Of a DNA stretch of 9,525 nucleotides, positions 1 through 9,525 are shown piece after piece. Positions within the stretch are counted from its first letter, which is position 1; each line of letters starts with the position of its first letter. Source of the DNA: a virus (Duplodnaviria; Heunggongvirae; Uroviricota; Caudoviricetes); IMG/VR virus record IMGVR_UViG_2563366807_000006. One strand, given 5' to 3'. The notes below the pieces were generated by a model that worked only from the letters and a program-made list of their open reading frames with translations, was not told the DNA's origin and made no database searches. The position numbers and the translations under genes are program-made.

Positions 1-621
1 GAGCCGGAGGCGTATTTTCGTATCGCACCGGAAGACTGGCTGCGGGCAGAGATGCAGGGGGAGATTGTGGCACTGGTCCACAGTCATCCCGGTGGGCTGC
101 CCTGGCTGAGCGAGGCTGACCGGCGGCTGCAGATAAAAAGCGCACTGCCCTGGTGGCTGGTCTGCCGGGGTGACATTCACAAATTCCGCTGTGTGCCACA
201 TCTGACGGGACGGCGCTTTGAGCACGGGGTGACGGACTGTTACACGCTGTTCCGGGATGCTTATCATCTGGCGGGGACTGAAATGCCGGATTTTCATCGC
301 GAGGATGACTGGTGGCGCAACGGTCAGAACCTTTACCTGGACAATATGGCGGTCACCGGCTTTTACCGGGTGCCCCTGTCCTCTGCACAGGCGGGCGATA
401 TTCTGCTGTGCTGCTTTGGTGCTTCGGTACCGAACCATGCCGCCATTTACTGCGGCAACGGTGAGCTGCTTCACCATCTGCCTGAACAACTGAGTAAACG
501 GGAGAGGTATTCCGAAAAATGGCAACGACGAACGCATTCTGTCTGGCGTCACCGCCACTGGCACGCATCTGCCTTCACGGGGATTTACAACGATTTGGCC
601 GCCGCCTCAGCCTGTATGTGA
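1..621 (+). CDS. K: Phage tail tip assembly protein K (5'-partial); JAB/MPN metalloprotease-like N-domain plus NlpC/P60-like C-domain
   Basis: Frame 1 is open from nt 1 (EPEAYFRIAPEDWLRAEMQGEIVALVHSHPGGLPWLSEAD...) to TGA at 619-621, so the true start is upstream of the window (the ORF track begins at an internal Met at 52). A perfect JAMM motif HxHx7Sx2D (HSHPGGLPWLSEAD) sits at nt 79-120. The C-terminal half has a Cys (GVTDCYTLF) and a His (PNHAAIY) as expected for an NlpC/P60 fold. The overall sequence is recognisably lambda gpK-like from memory. Confidence 0.88.
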   Translation, partial: EPEAYFRIAPEDWLRAEMQGEIVALVHSHPGGLPWLSEADRRLQIKSALPWWLVCRGDIHKFRCVPHLTGRRFEHGVTDCYTLFRDAYHLAGTEMPDFHREDDWWRNGQNLYLDNMAVTGFYRVPLSSAQAGDILLCCFGASVPNHAAIYCGNGELLHHLPEQLSKRERYSEKWQRRTHSVWRHRHWHASAFTGIYNDLAAASACM

Positions 622-1199
622 ACACGGCAGCGGAAGCCATCCGCGCGCTGTCGTTACAGGTGCCGGGCTTTCGCCGTCAGATGAACGAAGGCTGGTACCA
701 GATACGTATTGCCGGTTATGACACGGCACCGGAGGCGGTGTACGCCCGTCTTCACGAACAGCTGGGTGAGGGAACGGTCATCCATATTGTGCCGCGACTG
801 GCCGGGGCCGGAAAGGGTGGACTGCAGATTGTGCTGGGGGCGGCAGCCATCGTGGGCTCTTTCTTCACTGCCGGGGCATCAATGGCGTTATGGGGTTCAG
901 CCCTGGCAGCCGGTGGTTTTTCTGCCACCACGATGCTGTTTTCACTTGGAGCCAGCATGATTCTGGGCGGTGTGGCCCAGATGCTGGCCCCGAAGGCAAA
1001 AACACCGGATTACCGCGCAACGGATAACGGCAGACAGAACACGTACTTTTCCTCGCTGGATAACATGATTGCCCAGGGGAACCCGATGCCGGTGCCTTAC
1101 GGGGAAATGCTGGTTGGCTCCCGCCGTATATCCCAGGACATCAGCACCCGTGATGAAGGCGGGGGCGGAAAGGTCGTGGTTATCGGGCGGCAGGGGTAA
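519..1199 (+). CDS. I: Phage tail assembly protein I
   Basis: 226-aa ORF starting at ATG 519 and overlapping the 3' end of K by 103 nt in another frame, the same K/I overlap as in phage lambda. Sequence (ARICLHGDLQRFGRR..., Gly/Ala-rich hydrophobic middle, ...NTYFSSLDNM..VPYGEM..GSRRISQDISTRDEGGGGKVVVIGR) is recognisably lambda gpI-like. Stop TAA at 1197-1199. Confidence 0.9.
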   Translation: MATTNAFCLASPPLARICLHGDLQRFGRRLSLYVNTAAEAIRALSLQVPGFRRQMNEGWYQIRIAGYDTAPEAVYARLHEQLGEGTVIHIVPRLAGAGKGGLQIVLGAAAIVGSFFTAGASMALWGSALAAGGFSATTMLFSLGASMILGGVAQMLAPKAKTPDYRATDNGRQNTYFSSLDNMIAQGNPMPVPYGEMLVGSRRISQDISTRDEGGGGKVVVIGRQG

Positions 1200-1213
1200 A
1201 AAGAATAAAAAAA

Positions 1214-1245
1214 TCCCGCAGTGATCGCGGACAGGAACTGCGGGA
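1214..1245 (-). terminator. Candidate intrinsic terminator read on the minus strand
   Basis: Inverted repeat TCCCGCAGT (1214-1222) / ACTGCGGGA (1237-1245) with a 14-nt loop. On the + strand it is preceded by an A-run (AAAAAGAATAAAAAAA, 1197-1213), which is a T-run immediately following the hairpin when read on the minus strand. No T-tract follows it on the + strand. Confidence 0.3.
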
Positions 1246-1407
1246 GAGTTACGAAGATTAAGTGTAAGGAATTATTCTTATATCACGACAAAAAAATTAA
1301 CGCAGAGAAATTATACGCGCCACAGTCAGTTTGTGAAAATGTGAAGATATTCAGAATTTTTATGCCATTACCGGTTTTAACCAACAGGATTATCGGTGGG
1401 CATGAAA

Positions 1408-1445
1408 GAAAACCCCGGTATCTGCTGATACCGGGGTTTCTCTTT
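1408..1445. terminator. Strong GC-rich stem-loop with T-rich flanks on both sides (terminator-like, orientation ambiguous)
   Basis: AACCCCGGTAT (1411-1421) - CTGCTG loop - ATACCGGGGTT (1428-1438) is a perfect 11-bp stem. It is followed on the + strand by TCTCTTT and preceded by GAAAGAAAA, which is T-rich when read on the minus strand. Confidence 0.35.
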
Positions 1446-1542
1446 AGCATGGCAGAAATGTGTTTCATGCTTTTCGGGCGAAGGATATCCGACTTCTGTA
1501 CGGAATGGCAAGTGGCGGTTAATTTATTCAGGGGAAGGCTGT

Positions 1543-4500
1543 ATGGGAAAAGGTGGCGGTAAGGCACACACGCCTCGTGAGGCGAAGGATAATCTCAAAT
1601 CCACGCAGATGATGAGCGTGATTGATGCGATTGGTGAGGGACCGATAGAAGGTCCGGTGAAGGGACTGCAGAGTATCCTGGTGAACAAAACCCCGCTGAC
1701 GGACACGGACGGTAATCCCGTGATACACGGTGTGACGGCGGTCTGGCGCGCCGGGGAGCAGGAGCAGACACCACCGGAAGGCTTTGAGTCCTCCGGTGCT
1801 GAAACCGGACTGGGCGTGGAAGTGACGAAGGCAAAACCGGTGACGCGCACCATTACGTCCGCGAACATTGACCGCCTGCGGGTTACCTTCGGGGTGCAGT
1901 CACTGGTGGAGACCACCTCAAAGGGTGACCGTAACCCGGCATCCGTCCGCCTGCTGATTCAGTTACAGCGTAACGGTAACTGGGTGACAGAAAAGGACGT
2001 CACCATTAACGGCAAGACCACCTCACAGTTCCTGGCCTCGGTGATTCTGGATAATCTGCCTCCCCGGCCCTTTAACATCCGGATGGTCAGGGAGACGGCG
2101 GACAGCACCACGGACCAGCTGCAGAATAAGACGCTGTGGTCGTCATACACCGAAATCATCGATGTGAAACAGTGCTACCCGAACACGGCCATTGTGGGGC
2201 TGCAGGTGGATGCGGAGCAGTTCGGCGGCCAGCAGATGACGGTGAACTACCATATCCGCGGTCGCATCATCCAGGTGCCGTCAAACTATGACCCGGAAAA
2301 ACGCACGTATAGTGGTATCTGGGACGGCAGTCTGAAACCGGCATACAGCAACAACCCGGCCTGGTGCCTGTGGGACATGCTGACTCACCCGCGCTACGGC
2401 ATGGGAAAACGTCTGGGGGCGGCGGATGTGGACAAGTGGGCGCTGTATGCCATCGGGCAGTACTGCGACCAGACGGTCCCGGATGGTTTCGGGGGGACCG
2501 AGCCGCGGATGACCTTTAATGCGTACCTGGCACAACAGCGTAAGGCGTGGGACGTTCTCAGTGATTTCTGCTCTGCGATGCGCTGTATGCCGGTATGGAA
2601 CGGTCAGACGCTGACGTTCGTTCAGGACCGCCCGTCGGATGTGGTGTGGCCGTACACCAACAGCGATGTGGTGGTGGATGATAACGGCGTGGGATTCCGC
2701 TACAGCTTCAGTGCCCTGAAGGACCGGCACACGGCGGTGGAGGTGAATTACACCGACCCGCAGAACGGCTGGCAGACCTCCACGGAACTGGTGGAAGACC
2801 CGGAAGCCATACTGCGCTACGGACGCAACCTGCTGAAGATGGACGCGTTCGGCTGTACCAGCCGCGGTCAGGCCCACCGTGCCGGACTGTGGGTGATAAA
2901 GACCGAACTGCTGGAAACGCAGACGGTGGATTTCACGCTCGGGTCTCAGGGGCTGCGTCACACACCCGGTGACATCATTGAAATCTGTGATAATGACTAT
3001 GCCGGGACCCTGACCGGCGGACGTGTCCTGTCCATCGATGCCGCCAGCCGTACCCTGACGCTGGACCGGGAGGTGACACTGCCGGAGACCGGCACGGCCA
3101 CTGTTAATCTGATTAACGGCAGCGGTAAGCCGGCGAGTGTGGACATCACCGCACACCCCGCGCCGGACCGGATACAGGTCAGTACCCTGCCTGATGGTGT
3201 GGAGACATACGGTGTGTGGGGACTCTCCCTGCCGTCACTGCGTCGTCGCCTGTTCCGCTGTGTCTCCATCCGGGAAAACACGGACGGCACCTTTGCCATC
3301 ACGGCGGTGCAGCACGTACCGGAAAAAGAAGCCATCGTGGATAACGGTGCCCGCTTTGAGCCGCAGTCAGGTTCCCTGAACAGCGTCATCCCACCGGCAG
3401 TGCAGCACCTGACGGTGGAGGTGAGCGCAGCTGACGGCCAGTATCTGGCGCAGGCGAAATGGGACACGCCGCGGGTGGTGAAGGGTGTGCGCTTCAGTCT
3501 GCGCCTGACCAGTGGTAAGGGAACGGATGCCAGACTGGTGACCACCGCCATCACCGCAGACACGGAGCACCGTTTCAGCGGCCTGCCACTGGGGGAATAC
3601 ACCCTGACGGTGCGGGCGATAAACAGCTGCTACGGCATGGGAAAACGTCTGGGGGCGGCGGATGTGGACAAGTGGGCGCTGTATGCCATCGGGCAGTACT
3701 GCGACCAGACGGTCCCGGATGGTTTCGGGGGGACCGAGCCGCGGATGACCTTTAATGCGTACCTGGCACAACAGCGTAAGGCGTGGGACGTTCTCAGTGA
3801 TTTCTGCTCTGCGATGCGCTGTATGCCGGTATGGAACGGCCAGACGCTGACGTTCGTTCAGGACCGTCCGTCGGATGTGGTGTGGCCGTACACCAACAGC
3901 GATGTGGTGGTGGATGATAACGGCGTGGGTTTCCGCTACAGCTTCAGTGCCCTGAAGGACCGGCACACGGCAGTGGAGGTGAATTACACCGACCCGCAGA
4001 ACGGCTGGCAGACCTCCACGGAACTGGTGGAAGACCCGGAAGCCATACTGCGCTACGGACGCAACCTGCTGAAGATGGACGCGTTCGGCTGTACCAGCCG
4101 CGGTCAGGCCCACCGTGCCGGACTGTGGGTGATAAAGACCGAACTGCTGGAAACGCAGACGGTGGATTTCACGCTCGGGTCTCAGGGGCTGCGGCACACA
4201 CCCGGTGACATTATTGAAATCTGTGATAATGACTATGCCGGGACCCTGACCGGCGGACGTGTCCTGTCCATTGATGCTGCCACCCGCACCCTGACGCTGG
4301 ACCGTGAGGTTACCCTGCCGGAGACAGGTACATCGGCGGTGAACCTGATTAACGGCAGCGGTAAGCCGGTGAGTGTGGACATCACCGCACACCCCGCGCC
4401 GGACCGGATACAGGTCAGTACCCTGCCTGATGGTGTGGAGACATACGGGGTGTGGGGACTCTCCCTGCCGTCACTGCGCCGTCGCCTGTTCCGCTGTGTC

Positions 4501-4746
4501 TCCATCCGGGAAAACACGGACGGCACCTTTGCCATCACGGCGGTGCAGCACGTACCGGAAAAAGAAGCCATCGTGGATAACGGTGCCCGCTTTGAGCCGC
4601 AGTCAGGTTCCCTGAACAGCGTCATCCCACCGGCAGTGCAGCACCTGACGGTGGAGGTGAGCGCAGCTGACGGCCAGTATCTGGCGCAGGCGATGTGGTG
4701 GTGGATGATAACGGCGTGGGATTCCGCTACAGCTTCAGTGCCCTGA
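1543..4746 (+). CDS. J: Host specificity protein J (central tail fibre / tail tip), N-terminal portion with an internal tandem duplication; reading frame ends after a frameshifting junction at about 4690-4693
   Basis: ATG 1543 is preceded by GGGGAAGG (RBS). The N-terminus [39 protein letters not shown]... and downstream blocks ([70 protein letters not shown]) are recognisably lambda gpJ-like. The ORF runs 1067 aa; the last 18 codons ([17 protein letters not shown]) are out-of-frame read-through of the third repeat copy. Confidence 0.85.
2393..3628 (+). repeat. J internal repeat unit, copy 1 (complete, 1236 bp = 412 codons)
   Basis: Sequence from GCTACGGCATGGGAAAACG (2393) through ...GCGGGCGATAAACAGCT (3628) recurs starting at 3629 at about 99% identity. 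At protein level it spans [15 protein letters not shown]...[12 protein letters not shown]. Confidence 0.9.
3629..4692 (+). repeat. J internal repeat unit, copy 2 (partial, unit positions 1 to about 1064; in frame with copy 1)
   Basis: Offset of 1236 nt from copy 1. The junction retains an extra in-frame GCT (Cys) codon, giving ...[14 protein letters not shown].... The few nucleotide and amino-acid differences from copy 1 (e.g. AASRTLT vs AATRTLT; [21 protein letters not shown] vs [21 protein letters not shown]) show the copies are not identical. It ends at ...GQYLAQA. Confidence 0.88.
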
Positions 4747-5655
4747 AGGACCGGCACACGGCGGTGGAGGTGAATTACACCGACCCGCAGAACGGCTGGC
4801 AGACCTCCACGGAACTGGTGGAAGACCCGGAAGCCATACTGCGCTACGGACGCAACCTGCTGAAGATGGACGCGTTCGGCTGTACCAGCCGCGGTCAGGC
4901 CCACCGTGCCGGGCTGTGGGTGATAAAGACCGAACTGCTGGAAACGCAGACGGTGGATTTCACGCTCGGGTCACAGGGGCTGCGTCACACACCCGGTGAC
5001 ATCATTGAAATCTGTGATAACGACTATGCCGGGACCATGACCGGCGGACGTGTCCTGTCCATCGATGCCGCCAGCCGTACCCTGACGCTGGACCGGGAGG
5101 TGACACTGCCGGAGACCGGCACGGCCACTGTTAATCTGATTAACGGCAGCGGTAAGCCGGCGAGCGTGGCCATCACCGCACACCCCGCGCCTGACCGGAT
5201 ACAGGTCAGCACCCTGCCGGATGGTGTGGAGACATACGGTGTGTGGGGACTCTCCCTGCCGTCACTGCGTCGTCGCCTGTTCCGCTGTGTCTCCATCCGG
5301 GAAAACACGGACGGCACCTTTGCCATCACGGCGGTGCAGCACGTACCTGAAAAAGAAGCCATCGTGGATAACGGGGCCCGCTTTGAGCCGCAGTCAGGCA
5401 CCCTGAACAGCGTTATCCCACCGGCAGTGCAGCACCTGACGGTGGAGGTGAGCGCAGCTGACGGCCAGTATCTGGCGCAGGCTAAATGGGACACGCCGCG
5501 GGTGGTGAAGGGCGTGCGCTTCAGTCTGCGCCTGACCAGTGGTAAGGGAACGGATGCCAGACTGGTGACCACCGCCATCACCGCAGACACGGAGCACCGT
5601 TTCAGCGGCCTGCCACTGGGGGAATACACCCTGACGGTGCGGGCCATTAACAGCT
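4693..5655 (+). repeat. J internal repeat unit, copy 3 (partial, unit positions about 274-1236; -1 frame relative to the upstream J frame)
   Basis: Begins at ATGTGGTGGTGGATGATAACGGC, corresponding to copy 1 position about 2666, and continues to the unit end (..TVRAINS) before passing directly into the unique J 3' region ([12 protein letters not shown]...). The offset from copy 1 is 2027 nt, which is not a multiple of 3. It carries its own variants (AGTMTGG, ASVAIT, SGTLNSV). Confidence 0.88.
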
Positions 5656-7262
5656 ACGGCCAGCAGGGCGAACCTGCGACCACCACCTTCCGGATTGCCG
5701 CACCGGCAGCACCGTCGCGGATTGAGCTGACGCCGGGGTATTTTCAGATAACGGCGGTCCCGCGTCTTGCGGTGTATGACCCGACGGTACAGTTTGAATT
5801 CTGGTTCTCAGAAAAACGCATCACGAACACGGCACAGGTGGAAAAATCTGCCCGTTATCTGGGGACCGGCAGTCAGTGGACTGTCCAGGGGAGCCGGATT
5901 AAGCCGGGGACGGATTTCTGGTTTTACGTGCGAAGCGTCAACCTGGTGGGAAAATCTGCTTTTGTGGAAGCCAGCGGGCAGCCCAGCAATGATGGTGAAG
6001 GGTATCTGGAAATTTTCCGGGGGCTGATAGATGAGACGCTTCTGGGCCAGGCACTGAAAGAGCGCATTGATGCTTCAGCGCTGCGTACGGAGGTCACGCA
6101 ACTGGAAGAAGACATCCGTCAGCGGATGGACACGGATATCGCAGAAGTGACCCGGAAAATCGGGAAGGCGGAAAACAGCCTCACGCAGCTGGTTGCGAAA
6201 AAGAATGAGGACCAGACACTGGCCATCGCGCAGGTGAGCCAGAAAGTGGACCGGGTGAGCAGTGAAATCTCACAGACTGTCAGCCAGGGGCAGTCAGAAA
6301 ACGCCCGACAGATAGCACAGGTCCGCCAGTACGTGGATAAAAAAGGGAGTGAAATTACCTCGACCACGGATAAAAAGCTGGGTGACCAGGCCGTGACCAT
6401 ACAGCAAATCCAGCGGGTTCAGTCAGACACGCGCAATGAGCTGAATGCCATGTATATGCTGAAGGTGCAGAAAACAAAAAACGGTATTCCCTATGTGGCC
6501 GGGATTGGTGCGGGGATTGAGGATGTTGATGGTCAGACGCTGAGCAGTATTCTGCTGCAGGCGGACCGTATCGCGATGATTACCCCGGAGAATGGCAACA
6601 CCACGCCGCTGTTTGTGGCGCAGGGGAATCAGCTGTTCATGAACGACGTGTTCCTGAAGCGACTGTTTGCGGTGAGCATCACGTCATCCGGCAATCCTCC
6701 TACGTTTTCCCTGACGCCGGATGGCAGGCTGACAGCCCGCAATGCGGATATCAGTGGAGCCATCACGGCGAATACCGGCACGCTCAATAATGTCACCATT
6801 AACGAGAACTGTGTCATCAGAGGGAAACTGTCTGCAAACCAGATTGAAGGCGATCTCGTTAAAACAGTGGGTAAGGCTTTCCCCCGTGACTCCCGTGCAC
6901 CGGAGCGTTGGCCATCAGGAACCATTACCGTCAGGGTTTATGACGATCAGCCGTTTAACCGGCAGATTGTTATTCCGGCGGTGGCTTTCAGCGGTGCCAG
7001 ACATGAGCGGGAGAACAGCGATACTTATTCGTCATGCCGCCTGATAGTACGGAAAAACGGTGCTGAAATTTATAACCGTACCGCGCTGGATAATACGCTG
7101 ATTTACAGTGGTGTTATTGATATGCCTGCTGGTCGCGGCCACATGACGCTGGAGTTTTCTGTATCAGCATGGTGGGTAAATGGCTGGTATCCCACAGCAA
7201 GTATCAGCGATTTGCTGGTTGTTGTGATGAAGAAAGCCACTGCAGGCATCACGATTAGCTGA
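4695..7262 (+). CDS. J: Host specificity protein J, C-terminal portion (repeat copy 3, Fn3-like region, coiled-coil region, C-terminal receptor-binding region), 'cassette A'; probably the downstream half of a frameshifted J rather than an independent gene
   Basis: 855-aa ORF opening at GTG 4695, 2 nt after the copy 2/copy 3 junction, with no strong RBS (only a weak AGG at 4688-4690). Contains [21 protein letters not shown]...[10 protein letters not shown]...[16 protein letters not shown] (Fn3-like), a long heptad-like coiled-coil stretch (about 6040-6450), and a C-terminal block ...[24 protein letters not shown]...[29 protein letters not shown]... ending ..[10 protein letters not shown]; TGA at 7260-7262. 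Confidence 0.8.
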
Positions 7263-7683
7263 ATTTTATAACCCCAATACGGGCGCCAGAAATGGCGCCT
7301 TTTTTATTGCAGAAAAGCGAGAGGTAATTATGCGTAAAGTTTGTGCAGCCATTTTGTCCGCAGCCATCTGTCTGTCCGTATCCGGTGCGCCTGCATGGGC
7401 GTCTGAACATCAGCCCACACTGAGCGCGGGGTATCTTCATGCCCGTACGAACGCTCCCGGCAGCGATAATCTGAACGGGATTAACGTGAAATACCGTTAT
7501 GAGTTTACGGACGCGCTGGGGCTGATTACGTCCTTCAGTTATGCCAATGCTGAGGATGAGCAAAAAACGCACTACAGCGATACCCGCTGGCATGAAGATT
7601 CCGTGCGTAACCGCTGGTTCAGCGTGATGGCGGGGCCGTCTGTACGCGTGAATGAATGGTTCAGCGCGTATGCGATGGTGGGT
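5503..7683 (+). repeat. Segmental duplication unit A (J 3' portion - terminator - lom 5' portion), period about 2181 bp
   Basis: 5503-5750 is near-identical to 7684-7930, and about 6800-7683 is about 90-95% identical to 8760-9525 (the 7281-7307 terminator and lom start recur at 9243-9269 and 9292). The central part is divergent with a net 219-nt length difference. Confidence 0.85.
7281..7307 (+). terminator. Rho-independent terminator downstream of J cassette A
   Basis: GGCGCCA (7282-7288) - GAAA - TGGCGCC (7293-7299) followed by TTTTTTATT. Confidence 0.8.
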
Positions 7684-7689
7684 TGGTGA
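7330..7689 (+). pseudogene. lom: Lom/Ail-family outer membrane protein, 3'-truncated at codon 119 by the duplication junction (lom copy A)
   Basis: RBS GAGAGG 6 nt upstream of ATG 7330. Signal-peptide-like N-terminus MRKVCAAILSAAICLSVSGAPAWA, followed by ...LNGINVKYRYEFTDALG...RNRWFSVMAGP..SAYAM, which matches Lom/Ail beta-barrel proteins as I recall them. Full-length Lom is about 200 aa; here TGA is created at 7687-7689 exactly where J-derived sequence (GTGAAGGGCGTGCGCTTCAGT) begins. Confidence 0.75.
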
Positions 7690-9224
7690 AGGGCGTGCGC
7701 TTCAGTCTGCGCCTGACCAGTGGTAAGGGAACGGATGCCAGACTGGTGACCACCGCCATCACCGCAGACACGGAGCACCGTTTCAGCGGCCTGCCGCTCG
7801 GGGAATACACCCTGACGGTGCGGGCGATAAACAGCTATGGCCAGCAGGGTGAACCTGCCACCACCACCTTCCGGATTGCCGCACCGGCAGCACCGTCGCG
7901 GATTGAGCTGACGCCGGGCTATTTTCAGATAACCGCAACGCCACATCTTGCCGTTTATGACCCGACGGTACAGTTTGAGTTCTGGTTCTCGGAAAAGCGG
8001 ATTGCGGATATCAGGCAGGTTGAAACCGCAGCCCGCTATCTTGGCTCGGCGCTGTACTGGATAGCTGCCAGTATCAATATCAAACCGGGCCATGATTATT
8101 ATTTTTATATCCGCAGTGTGAATACTGTTGGCAAATCGGCATTCGTGGAGGCTGTCGGTCGGGCGAGCGATGATGCGGAAGGTTACCTGGATTTTTTCAA
8201 AGGAGAAATCGGGAAAACACATCTGGCCCAGGAGCTGTGGACGCAGATTGATAACGGTCAGCTTGCGCCGGACCTGGCTGAAATCAGGACGTCCATTACG
8301 AATGTCAGCAATGAAATCACGCAGACCGTCAATAAAAAACTGGAAAATCAGAGTGCGGCAATCCAGCAGATACAGAAAGTTCAGGTTGATACAAATAATA
8401 ACCTGAACAGCATGTGGGCCGTGAAACTGCAGCAGATGCAGGACGGACGCCTTTATATTGCGGGTATCGGTGCCGGTATTGAGAATACGCCAGCAGGAAT
8501 GCAGAGTCAGGTGCTGCTGGCGGCAGACAGGATTGCGATGATTAATCCTGCGAATGGCAACACAAAGCCGATGTTTGTTGGTCAGGGCGATCAGATATTT
8601 ATGAATGAAGTGTTCCTGAAATATCTGACGGCTCCCACCATTACCAGCGGCGGTAATCCTCCGGCATTTTCCCTGACACCGGACGGGCGGCTGACGGCGA
8701 AAAATGCCGATATCAGCGGTAACGTGAATGCGAACTCCGGGACGCTCAACAACGTCACGATTAACGAGAACTGTCGGGTTCTGGGAAAATTGTCCGCGAA
8801 CCAGATTGAAGGCGATCTCGTTAAAACAGTGGGCAAAGCTTTCCCCCGGGACTCCCGTGCACCGGAGCGGTGGCCATCAGGAACCATTACCGTCAGGGTT
8901 TATGACGATCAGCCGTTTGACCGGCAGATTGTTATTCCGGCGGTGGCATTCAGCGGCGCTAAACATGAGAAAGAGCATACTGATATTTACTCCTCATGCC
9001 GTCTGATAGTGCGGAAAAACGGTGCTGAAATTTATAACCGTACCGCGCTGGATAATACGCTGATTTACAGTGGTGTTATTGATATGCCTGCCGGTCACGG
9101 TCACATGACACTGGAGTTTTCGGTGTCAGCATGGCTGGTAAATAACTGGTATCCCACAGCAAGTATCAGCGATTTGCTGGTTGTGGTGATGAAGAAAGCC
9201 ACTGCAGGCATCACGATTAGCTGA
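7656..9224 (+). CDS. J C-terminal paralogue fragment, 'cassette B' (Fn3-like region + shorter coiled-coil + C-terminal receptor-binding region); lacks the J N-terminal domains; silent cassette or remnant
   Basis: 522-aa ORF. The first 11 codons (from ATG 7656) are an alternate-frame read of the lom-A 3' end with no RBS. From about 7684 onward it encodes [62 protein letters not shown]..., near-identical to cassette A and repeat copies 1 and 3. The middle ([92 protein letters not shown]) differs from cassette A and is closer to my recollection of phage lambda J. Ends ..[13 protein letters not shown] at 9222-9224. Confidence 0.7.
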
Positions 9225-9242
9225 ATTTTATAACCCAGATAC

Positions 9243-9269
9243 GGGCGCCAGAAATGGCGCCTTTTTTAT
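9243..9269 (+). terminator. Rho-independent terminator downstream of J cassette B
   Basis: GGCGCCA (9244-9250) - GAAA - TGGCGCC (9255-9261) followed by TTTTTTATT; identical to the 7281-7307 element. Confidence 0.8.
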
Positions 9270-9291
9270 TGCAGAAAAGCGAGAGGTAATT

Positions 9292-9525
9292 ATGCGTAAA
9301 TTATGTGCTGTTATTTTGTCCGCAGTAGTCTGGCAGGTCGCCGCTGCTACGCCAGCGAGTGCAGCAGAACATCAGTCCACGCTGAGCGCGGGGTATCTCC
9401 ATGCCTCGACGAACGTTCCCGGTAGTGATGATCTGAACGGGATTAACGTGAAATACCGTTATGAGTTTACGGACGCGCTGGGGCTGATTACGTCCTTCAG
9501 TTATGCCAATGCTGAGGATGAGCAA
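9292..9525 (+). CDS. lom: Lom/Ail-family outer membrane protein (lom copy B), 3'-partial at window end
   Basis: GAGAGG RBS then ATG 9292. MRKLCAVILSAVVWQVAAATPASAAEHQSTLSAGYLHASTNVPGSDDLNGINVKYRYEFTDALGLITSFSYANAEDEQ..., open to the window end. The signal peptide differs from lom-A while the mature region is near-identical. Confidence 0.85.
   Translation, partial: MRKLCAVILSAVVWQVAAATPASAAEHQSTLSAGYLHASTNVPGSDDLNGINVKYRYEFTDALGLITSFSYANAEDEQ

Follow-up and report, generated by a model that had tools for sequence, protein, structure and literature searches.

The window analysed here, a 9,525 nt stretch of DNA, carries fragments of the genes K, I, J and lom and corresponds to L001 8459-17983, drawn from scaffold KE136575.1 of the draft assembly of E. 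coli KTE1 (GCA_000407665.1), a strain for which a literature search returned no paper. It is flanked directly in KE136575.1 by N-runs of 10 and 4690 and has no N inside, and the contig preceding it duplicates window positions 1-2603 at 98.2%. J does not form a single frame of about 1130-1230 codons in the window; it is split over ORFs at 1543-4746, 4695-7262 and 7656-9224, with duplicated segments. The 5' part of lom (7330-7689; Pfam Ail_Lom), of A-type as defined below, is cut off at a junction (J3), whereas lom is intact at 600 nt in the corresponding locus of strain EBJ003 (L003). At the gathering score Rfam had no match in the window, the only signals being terminator-driven chance matches in the I-J spacer.

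Two J 3' ends stand in tandem in this stretch, cassette A (5502-7259, 586 aa) and cassette B (7683-9221, 513 aa); both cassettes, the lom fragment and all features mapped in them lie on the + strand. In allele A, Pfam placed Ig_J at 5394-5705, Ig_J_second (FNIII-2) at 5709-6017, Phage_Tail_Tip (the beta-prism) at 6399-6782 and Ig_GpJ_C (the receptor-binding domain) at 6867-7259, and in allele B the FNIII-2 domain falls at 7890-8198 and the beta-prism at 8358-8744. Intact A-type and B-type genes each carry FNIII-A_GpJ, Phage-tail_3, Ig_J, Ig_J_second, Phage_Tail_Tip and Ig_GpJ_C, all above the curated cut-off, and precomputed Pfam matches on the window's own gene calls agree with this six-family series. 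Cassette A matched the solved lambda gpJ (8iyk_J) in phmmer at E = 1e-161 over lambda residues 647-838 and 840-1131, two aligned stretches between which A has about 102 residues more. The same Pfam series and the same gene position, with K, I, J and lom in order, are found for lambda gpJ (PDB 8IYK, 8XCK, 8XCI, 8XCJ), and A and B also follow the lambda order of FNIII-1, FNIII-2, alpha-helical shaft, beta-prism fibre and Ig-like receptor-binding domain (PMC11101478). Judged by domain series, homology and gene context, A and B thus belong to the gpJ-type tip attachment proteins. In the phmmer alignment the receptor-binding domain appears to depart from that of lambda more than the beta-prism region does, so that LamB is at most a possible receptor for either allele.

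A global protein alignment of the two cassettes revealed 87 identical positions in the first 90 columns, a fall to 50-60% identity from about column 120, and a return to 80-100% over the last 140 columns, so that conserved flanks enclose a variable core where a uniform divergence could have been found. The conserved N flank of A (5502-5741) comprises the end of FNIII-1 and the first FNIII-2 codons and matches B at 7683-7922, with 97-100% amino acid identity and 9 nucleotide mismatches in 5502-5740. The divergent core of A (5742-6829) contains FNIII-2, the alpha-helical shaft and the beta-prism central straight fibre and is only 23-80% identical to that of B (7923-8791), which has FNIII-2, a short shaft and the beta-prism. 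The conserved C flank of A (6830-7262) holds the last fibre residues, the receptor-binding domain and the stop, at 85-100% identity, and its counterpart in B (8792-9224) holds the receptor-binding domain (8829-9221) and the stop codon; the B borders were drawn from the alignment, the synonymous divergence and the mismatch map. Nucleotide mismatches are sparse to 5738, dense from 5753 and sparse again from about 6830, and the divergent core that the original prediction had put at 5750-6810 and 7930-8770 was accordingly correct to about 10-20 nt. The length difference of 73 codons proposed there is exact and is due to one 73-residue gap in B, and the peptides it quoted are present in the translations. 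Its count of about nine differences in the last 150 or so residues needs a shorter span, for the 130 residues from GKAFPRD to the end have exactly 9 differences and the last 150 have 12. The Pfam assignments and the lambda gpJ alignment bear out its view that the variable part is not the C-terminal receptor-binding domain; it consists of FNIII-2, the shaft and the upper fibre.

Amino acid identity alone cannot tell selection from recent ancestry, and the flanks are constrained domains, which leaves room for a reading with no recombination at all, in which A and B are uniformly old and their flanks were kept alike by strong purifying selection acting on the FNIII-1 and receptor-binding domains. 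Synonymous sites speak strongly against it. In 40-codon windows the synonymous divergence between A and B was 0.06-0.21 in the N flank, rose in the core from 1.2 to beyond saturation, and fell back to 0.06-0.53 in the C flank, with the drop from saturation to 0.06-0.3 at the same borders as the change in protein identity. Intact alleles from natural loci (L003 against the J gene of strain 4/1-1, L004) gave the same divergence profile over the whole J gene, with third-codon-position identity of 24-47% in the core and 80-100% in the flanks. Natural J proteins also carry the same modules in other combinations, and some natural alleles pair an A-type or B-type core with an unrelated receptor-binding domain or an unrelated FNIII-1. 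Since synonymous sites have diverged little in the flanks but to saturation in the core, the conserved-flank/variable-core pattern is, as read from these alignments, a true recombinational mosaic between J alleles, as had been proposed, and by the same measure it exceeds what chance and purifying selection alone would leave; we give the reading without recombination next to no credence. Modular tail-fibre mosaicism of this kind, with conserved flanks, a swapped middle, breakpoints near domain borders and reassorted modules, is already well known, and A and B conform to it. Textbook tail-fibre mosaics mostly swap the tip, whereas A and B swap the shaft and fibre body and have the tip in common.

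The 73-residue difference lies in the shaft. For A, an AlphaFold2 monomer model made without an alignment predicted a single alpha-helix of 137 residues, an extended shaft, at 6033-6443 (residues 77-213 of the segment 5805-6830) with pLDDT of about 76-85; the rest of that model was below 60 and was not used, and the model of the B core (pLDDT 35) was discarded. The counterpart of the A helix in lambda is the shaft at residues 809-861 (PMC11101478). The stretch had been called heptad-like, which is approximately right in that it is a long predicted helix with a 29-residue repeat, but its hydrophobic residues recur with a period of 3.65 and not 3.5, and the power observed was reached by 9 of 500 shuffled sequences, making the periodicity significant for A only, and modestly. 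Self-comparison of A gave its best diagonals at offsets of 29 and 58, and four 29-residue units stand in register at 6129-6467 (starts 6129, 6216, 6303 and 6390), the last of them entering the start of the beta-prism, whereas the short shaft of B has two (starts 8265 and 8352). The extra 73 residues of A amount to two more 29-residue copies plus 15 residues within the one long predicted helix. Tandem Repeats Finder detected no DNA-level tandem repeat in the shaft, which indicates that the duplication of the unit is old and not recent.

Measured from GYL to YVAGIG, the shaft is 63 residues long in lambda, 91 in B and 164 in A, so that B exceeds lambda by about 28 residues and A by about 101, and lambda has roughly one 29-residue unit fewer than B. 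Among J proteins the shaft comes in discrete length classes of 63, 91, 164 and 200 residues between fixed anchors; a literature search on mosaicism in J brought up no paper that describes such classes. That shaft length varies within the family is also shown by PyoF10, the central fibre of an F-type pyocin of Pseudomonas aeruginosa. In lambda the helical shaft flips and unlocks the tail tip (PMC11101478). By analogy with the lambda structure, the shaft of A and B would clamp the FNIII domains and relay receptor binding. If the shaft is a trimeric helical assembly, the 73-codon difference would fall within it, A having four units and a longer lead-in where B has two, and 73 more helical residues would make the central fibre about 11 nm longer with receptor specificity unchanged.

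Both cassettes have close counterparts outside KTE1. Many complete genomes have an annotated single gpJ gene that matches cassette A together with the 5' part of lom at 100% identity, or cassette B at 99.9%, and across the cassette regions the nucleotide identity to known E. coli prophage and phage J genes is 98.6-100%, including phage records such as PhiR40_1 (98.6%), vB_EcoS-783R2 (100%) and the Stx1 phage VT1-Sakai (99.8%). Intact J is 1230 aa in the A-type and 1157 aa in the B-type. The A-type allele is effectively that of the EBJ003 prophage J next to potAB (WP_000514742.1), PhiR40_1 and PhiR49_2, and the B-type allele effectively that of the strain 4/1-1 prophage (WP_000514710.1), vB_EcoS-783R2, VT1-Sakai and the PPompW phages. 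Unlike the window, these known records have one intact J followed by lom and no tandem 3' ends, and every natural locus that we inspected (L003, L004 and L005) has a single J followed by lom and stf, with K and I upstream. Among the close homologues of J in the databases, the majority are "partial" proteins encoded on draft contigs. By sequence identity, then, cassettes A and B are the 3' ends of ordinary, already known J genes.

How they came to stand side by side is suggested by the make-up of the window, which on self-comparison has three backward jumps, all in the same orientation, between copies only 95-98% alike. At least three J alleles are joined here at three microhomology junctions (3628/3629, about 4690 and 7680/7681). 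The first piece (1-3628), which we treated as a putative third J allele, has a best match of no more than 98.8% in complete genomes; we rejected the reading that it is stitched together from alleles A and B, since its mismatches to L003, L004, L005 and the contig before the window form blocks that do not resolve into clean segments. The second (3629-4693) is B-type and 99.6% identical to the J gene of strain 4/1-1; the third (4690-7686) is an A-type J-lom segment 99.9% identical to the EBJ003 locus (L003 5991-8988); and the fourth (7680-9525) is again B-type and matches the intact J (1157 aa) of strain 4/1-1 at 99.9%. The second and fourth pieces are only 15 nt apart in the J gene of strain 4/1-1 (L004). 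The preceding contig, the third piece and the contig after the gap are likewise consecutive parts of an EBJ003-type prophage, with 59 and 17 nt missing between them, and taking the interleaved pieces out restores collinear genes in both cases. We also considered whether the preceding contig runs on into the second piece, the start of which is 100% identical to its last 211 nt, and rejected this, the preceding contig being A-type and the 211-nt stretch at its end being sequence common to alleles A and B.

The junctions themselves have 0-8 nt of microhomology. J1 (3628/3629) jumps backward and in frame, from J position 2086 to position 851 in another allele; an additional GCT stands at the join, which adjoins an 8-nt microhomology (GCTACGGC). 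J2 (4690-4693) passes from the middle of a B-type J to the middle of an A-type J at GCGA and shifts the frame, which stops the ORF at 1543-4746. At J3 (7680-7686) the lom sequence of the A-type prophage runs into the FNIII-1 region of a B-type J, the two overlapping by 7 nt. Searched against 5,426 complete E. coli genomes, the J1 probe was found in none, the 401-nt J3 probe had no place with at least 80% coverage, and the J2 probe matched solely as two non-collinear pieces. Exact scans of IMG/VR had no match for J3 or J1, and the 1067-aa chimeric protein derived from J1 is a singleton cluster among about 15 billion proteins. The assumption that the two cassettes belong to one locus is not supported by these comparisons: they lie in a draft contig between N-runs, J1 and J3 are absent from the complete genomes, and each cassette is part of a single gene elsewhere.

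Microhomology of this length is also what a rearrangement in the cell might leave. Three backward jumps that all keep one orientation, with microhomology of 0-8 nt and in one case a 3-nt insertion, form the signature of template-switch duplication, and the assembler gave the junctions as contiguous, without N; the arrangement could on these grounds be real in KTE1. Three resident lambdoid prophages would then have recombined illegitimately or by microhomology-mediated template switching, and the non-functional product would comprise a J gene that is disrupted and partly duplicated, together with a fusion lom::J. Three switches would, however, be needed among three alleles from distant loci, and these alleles have stayed 99.6-99.9% identical to intact genes elsewhere. 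Removal of the foreign pieces yields two genes contiguous to within 15-59 nt, the contig lies between two N gaps, beside sequence that repeats its first 2.6 kb at 98%, and the zero count of J1 and J3 in complete genomes and the singleton status of the chimeric protein point the same way, so that we regard a real rearrangement as unlikely.

A functional tandem fares worse. The divergent core is bordered by direct repeats (240 nt at about 96%, and about 730 nt at 85-93%), which is the geometry required if B were a silent, promoterless donor that swaps the 3' end of an expressed J and toggles the shaft and fibre type, recombination then using the conserved flanks 5502-5741/7683-7922 and 6830-7563/8792-9525. 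The supposedly expressed upstream J is, however, itself frameshifted and duplicated, the window has neither inverted repeats nor a recombinase or reverse transcriptase gene, the mismatches have no adenine bias, the lom::J junction occurs in no complete genome, and the natural loci inspected have a single J. Programmed variation of this sort therefore appears extremely improbable, and the related proposal that the tandem is genuine in KTE1, with B a stored 3' end by which the phage would toggle between a short and a long shaft (about 11 nm) on the same receptor-binding domain, is scarcely less so and we hold it to be highly unlikely. Known switching systems were compared individually and set aside: invertible segments (Gin, Cin, Min; shufflons), with no inverted repeats of at least 40 nt, both cassettes on the same strand and no recombinase called; a diversity-generating retroelement, with no adenine bias in the flank substitutions and no reverse transcriptase in the window or the scaffold stretch; and silent-cassette conversion of the pilE/pilS or vlsE type, the expression copy being disrupted and the arrangement unique to this draft.

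Based on these data, we favour, at a probability of roughly 0.85, the explanation that A and B are the 3' halves of separate gpJ genes from different lambdoid prophages of KTE1, abutted by a chimeric draft contig, with a core that has been exchanged as a module. The placing of two cassettes in one locus is very probably not biological, and the relation between A and B is that of alleles of different prophages, not of an expressed and a stored copy; the window being a draft contig of at least three J alleles, and each cassette a single gene elsewhere, the two can be compared only as alleles. On this explanation, A and B would have a recent common ancestry in the hub and FNIII-1 and again in the receptor-binding domain, and the deeply diverged block of FNIII-2, alpha-helical shaft and beta-prism would have been swapped by homologous recombination. 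The probable breakpoints lie about 11-15 codons inside the border between FNIII-1 and FNIII-2 at one end and, at the other, some 12 codons ahead of the receptor-binding domain. Assembly would then have interleaved short contigs of three prophage regions that are nearly identical, sealing them at tiny overlaps, and the internal J duplications upstream would be the same assembly artefact as the tandem 3' ends and no feature of the genome. Repeat-induced chimeric contigs in short-read drafts of polylysogenic E. coli have the N-gap bounds, interleaved pieces that each match a contiguous natural gene, and unique junctions seen here. Joins without N at overlaps of 0-8 nt, as in the window, are unusual for a pure k-mer graph error; a k-mer graph walk cannot yield joins at 4-8 nt of microhomology, a point against this explanation unless a gap-closing or contig-abutting step is assumed.

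The finding is mainly a caution, in that the J genes of polylysogenic E. coli appear especially prone to chimeric draft assembly. Public protein databases would carry an artefact in EOW94394.1, the 1067-aa "phage tail protein", and apparent "cassettes" in such J regions need comparison with complete genomes. For the biology of the family, FNIII-1, FNIII-2, shaft, fibre and receptor-binding modules are reassorted among natural alleles of lambda-type J, with shaft length classes built from 29-residue units. A and B are natural alleles that have the receptor-binding domain in common but shafts of unlike length, and this pair could be used to probe the role of shaft length in receptor reach through O-antigen or capsule, or in triggering.

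Reading of the ORF list and translations placed a 5'-truncated K (52-621) and I (519-1199), both lambda-type tail genes on the + strand, ahead of a low-GC spacer of 343 nt (1200-1542) and the start of J at 1543 on the same strand. J is not a single gene here and is split over several ORFs, all on the + strand. The first (1543-4746, 1067 AA) contains the same stretch of about 400 residues twice, the second (4695-7262, 855 AA) restarts within that stretch and ends at the J C-terminus as cassette A, and after a truncated lom (7330-7689) the third (7656-9224, 522 AA) runs from the J FNIII region to another J C-terminus (cassette B), with a second lom start downstream. Self-comparison of the window revealed no inverted repeats, and matched 2393-3457 with 3629-4693 (97.7% identity), 2663-3628 with 4690-5655 (98.1%), 3899-4691 with 4690-5482 (95.3%), 5500-6017 with 7681-8198 (81.6%), and 6552-7563 with 8514-9525 (85.4%). 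The region 2393-5655 thus holds two partial internal duplications of upstream J, with copies 95-98% alike and microhomology joins, one in frame and the other frame-shifting; these are probably part of the same assembly chimera as the A/B tandem. The product of the chimeric ORF stands in public databases as a singleton, the 1067 AA "phage tail protein" EOW94394.1.

The spacer between I and J (GC about 47% versus about 60% around it) also occurs in the natural prophages of strains EBJ003 and 4/1-1 and at a further natural prophage locus (L005); in lambda, I and J are adjacent. Within the spacer, 1405-1445 can form a near-perfect hairpin (AAAACCCCGGTATC-TGCT-GATACCGGGGTTT), T-runs being present on both strands, and the minus strand has a promoter-like site (TTCACA-16-TATAAT, 1337 to 1310) with a terminator-like site beyond it (1231 to 1215). 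In combination, these elements could represent a small RNA of approximately 90 nt or else a moron; Rfam gave no match to the spacer at the gathering score.

An exact-protein look-up found both the 1067 AA ORF and the truncated lom on one record, Escherichia coli KTE1 scaffold KE136575.1 (GCA_000407665.1), in which runs of 10 N and 4690 N bound the window exactly, so that it corresponds to a single contig of a draft scaffold. The preceding contig duplicates window 1-2603 at 98.2%. Two complete genomes served for comparison with the scaffold, those of EBJ003 (L003; J of 1230 AA, intact lom, and a side-fibre gene of 1008 AA) and 4/1-1 (L004; J of 1157 AA). The preceding contig best matched L003 1-5931 (99.9%), window 3629-4693 matched L004 5921-6985 (99.6%), window 4690-7686 matched L003 5991-8988 (99.9%), window 7680-9525 matched L004 7001-8845 (99.9%), and the contig after the gap matched L003 from 9006 onward (99.9%), while window 1-3628 was a third allele with a best match anywhere of 98.8%. 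By the L003 matches, the A-type prophage is present as three successive parts of its sequence, separated by no more than 59 and 17 missing nt, and the two B-type pieces adjoin in their own gene in L004, 15 nt apart. The pieces are simply interleaved in the scaffold. Single annotated gpJ-lom loci were 100% identical to 5700-7680 and 99.9% identical to 7681-9525, with A or B matches in hundreds of complete genomes, and phage records contained allele A (PhiR40_1 and PhiR49_2, 98.6%) and allele B (vB_EcoS-783R2, 100%; VT1-Sakai, 99.8%), so both alleles are already known.

The 4690-nt N-gap (17984-22673 in the scaffold stretch L001) is close to the summed length of the first two pieces (4693 nt; window 1-4693), which could reflect chance or the way in which the scaffolder placed the repeat contigs. 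In the best allele-B genome match, E. coli 4/1-1 (NZ_CP023844.1), lom is split by an insertion of the IS21-family element ISEc12 (L004 9049-11570), and the gap after the B-type lom fragment in KTE1 could conceal an insertion of this kind. In the hit list for the C-terminal half of J, the nearest database homologues were mostly annotated as "partial" on contigs of 2-4 kb, showing that short-read E. coli assemblies routinely break J.

The pieces meet at three joins with 0-8 nt of microhomology: J1 at 3628/3629, with an extra GCT adjoining a shared GCTACGGC; J2 at about 4690, with GCGA microhomology and a shifted frame; and J3 at 7680-7686, with a 7-nt overlap. For 401-nt probes of J1 and J3, no place covering at least 80% was found in 5,426 complete E. 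coli genomes, and the J2 probe matched complete E. coli genomes only as two non-collinear pieces. J1 and J3 were both missing from IMG/VR, and the chimeric 1067 AA protein was a singleton among approximately 15 billion proteins. The original prediction of two cassettes in one locus was therefore not borne out, as the junctions are unique and the pieces match separate intact gpJ-lom loci; from these comparisons we put the probability that the tandem is an assembly artefact at roughly 85%. A real but non-functional rearrangement is unlikely, as it would call for three illegitimate joins among three different prophages, all confined to the one region that is unresolvable for an assembler, although joins with 4-8 nt overlaps are not producible by a k-mer graph walk, so that the artefact presupposes a step of contig abutting or gap closing.

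Alignment of cassette A (586 AA, 5502-7259) with cassette B (513 AA, 7683-9221), together with dS windows, confirmed the predicted conserved flanks, divergent core, and 73-codon difference. Identity was 87/90 over the first 90 columns, dropped to 50-60% thereafter, and was back at 80-100% in the final 140 columns; there was a single gap of 73 residues, in B, and the two lengths differ by exactly 73 codons. Mismatch positions set the core borders at about 5740-5753 and 6825-6830, in good agreement with those predicted. The count of nine C-terminal differences holds for the 130 residues from GKAFPRD to the end, but not for the last 150, which contain 12. Nei-Gojobori dS in 40-codon windows was 0.06-0.21 in the N flank, 1.2 to beyond saturation in the core (5742-6821), and 0.06-0.53 in the C flank, and third-position identity between intact natural alleles was 80-100% outside the core but 24-47% within it. 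Given these steps, the flanks are of recent common ancestry and the core is not, and the pattern is a genuine mosaic, more than selection on the flanks.

On the A-type J, Pfam identified, all on the + strand, Ig_J (FNIII-1; residues 609-712, 5394-5705), Ig_J_second (FNIII-2; 714-816, 5709-6017), Phage_Tail_Tip (the beta-prism fibre; 944-1071, 6399-6782), and Ig_GpJ_C (the receptor-binding domain; 1100-1230, 6867-7259). Against solved lambda gpJ (8IYK and others), cassette A residues 2-192 aligned with lambda 647-838 and residues 295-585 with 840-1131, so about 102 residues are inserted at lambda position ~839. Lambda residues 809-861 form the alpha-helical shaft, a three-helix bundle below FNIII-2, which on LamB binding turns over by about 180 degrees, with part of it refolding into beta-strands, freeing the FNIII domains and opening the tip (Ge and Wang 2024, PMC11101478). 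Taken together, the Pfam domains and the lambda alignment define the variable block as FNIII-2, shaft, and beta-prism and the common C flank as the receptor-binding domain, in line with the prediction that the shaft varies and the receptor-binding C-terminus does not. One breakpoint falls 11-15 codons into FNIII-2 and the other about 12 codons ahead of the receptor-binding domain, both near domain borders. Within the otherwise conserved receptor-binding domain, A/B differences bunch in two patches at 6980-7040 and 7130-7190 (8942-9002 and 9092-9152 in B), in which one 10-letter stretch stands against another and WWVNG (A) against WLVNN (B). A lone R/H change separates the two patches, which may represent receptor-contact loops or mini-mosaic tracts.

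In a monomer AlphaFold2 model of 5805-6830, made without an alignment, the A shaft is one helix of 137 residues (nt 6033-6443; pLDDT ~76-85); the B model reached a pLDDT of 35. Self-comparison of the A shaft gave the best diagonals at offsets 29 and 58, a 29-residue repeat that is invisible at the DNA level. On the + strand, A has four such units in register (6129-6467; starts 6129, 6216, 6303, and 6390) and B has two (8265-8429; starts 8265 and 8352), and the 73 extra residues of A are two added units (58) plus 15 residues in the lead-in. The shaft is thus assembled from 29-residue units. The description of the A stretch as "heptad-like" was only roughly right, as its hydrophobic moment peaks at a period of 3.65 residues (reached by 9/500 shuffles), near 29/8 (3.625) rather than 3.5. 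Among the database J proteins P0010-P0024 and P0137-P0231, the spacing between GYL and Y(V/I)AGIG falls into discrete classes of 63 (lambda-like), 91 (B-like), 164 (A-like), and 200, the last being the A type plus one 29-residue unit and one heptad.

Region-by-region identities of database J proteins revealed the same modules in other combinations, which supports the predicted recombination between J alleles. P0078, P0080, and P0098 combine A-type FNIII-2, shaft, and fibre (87-96%) with an unrelated receptor-binding domain (57-61%), P0141 a B-type core (89-96%) with another receptor-binding domain (40%), P0030, P0037, and P0137 A-type or B-type 3' halves with different FNIII-1, and P0149 a lambda-length shaft with a B-like receptor-binding domain, while the shafts of P0145 and P0178 are recombinant internally. 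A and B are two ordinary J alleles with a common receptor-binding domain and an exchanged central block, and modular mosaicism of tail fibres is textbook. None of the three programmed-variation systems considered fits: invertible segments were rejected for want of inverted repeats or an invertase, diversity-generating retroelements for want of adenine bias or a reverse transcriptase, and silent-cassette conversion because its would-be "expressed" copy is disrupted and the arrangement occurs in this draft alone.

[quoted passage not shown] By extension from lambda (PMC11101478) and F-type pyocin, the shaft would be a trimeric bundle that fixes the reach of the receptor-binding domain and relays the trigger, and added units would lengthen the fibre while leaving specificity unchanged; at about 0.15 nm per helical residue, the A fibre would exceed that of B by about 11 nm. 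Neither the 29-residue unit nor the discrete shaft-length classes were found in the literature searched; they are a small descriptive addition.
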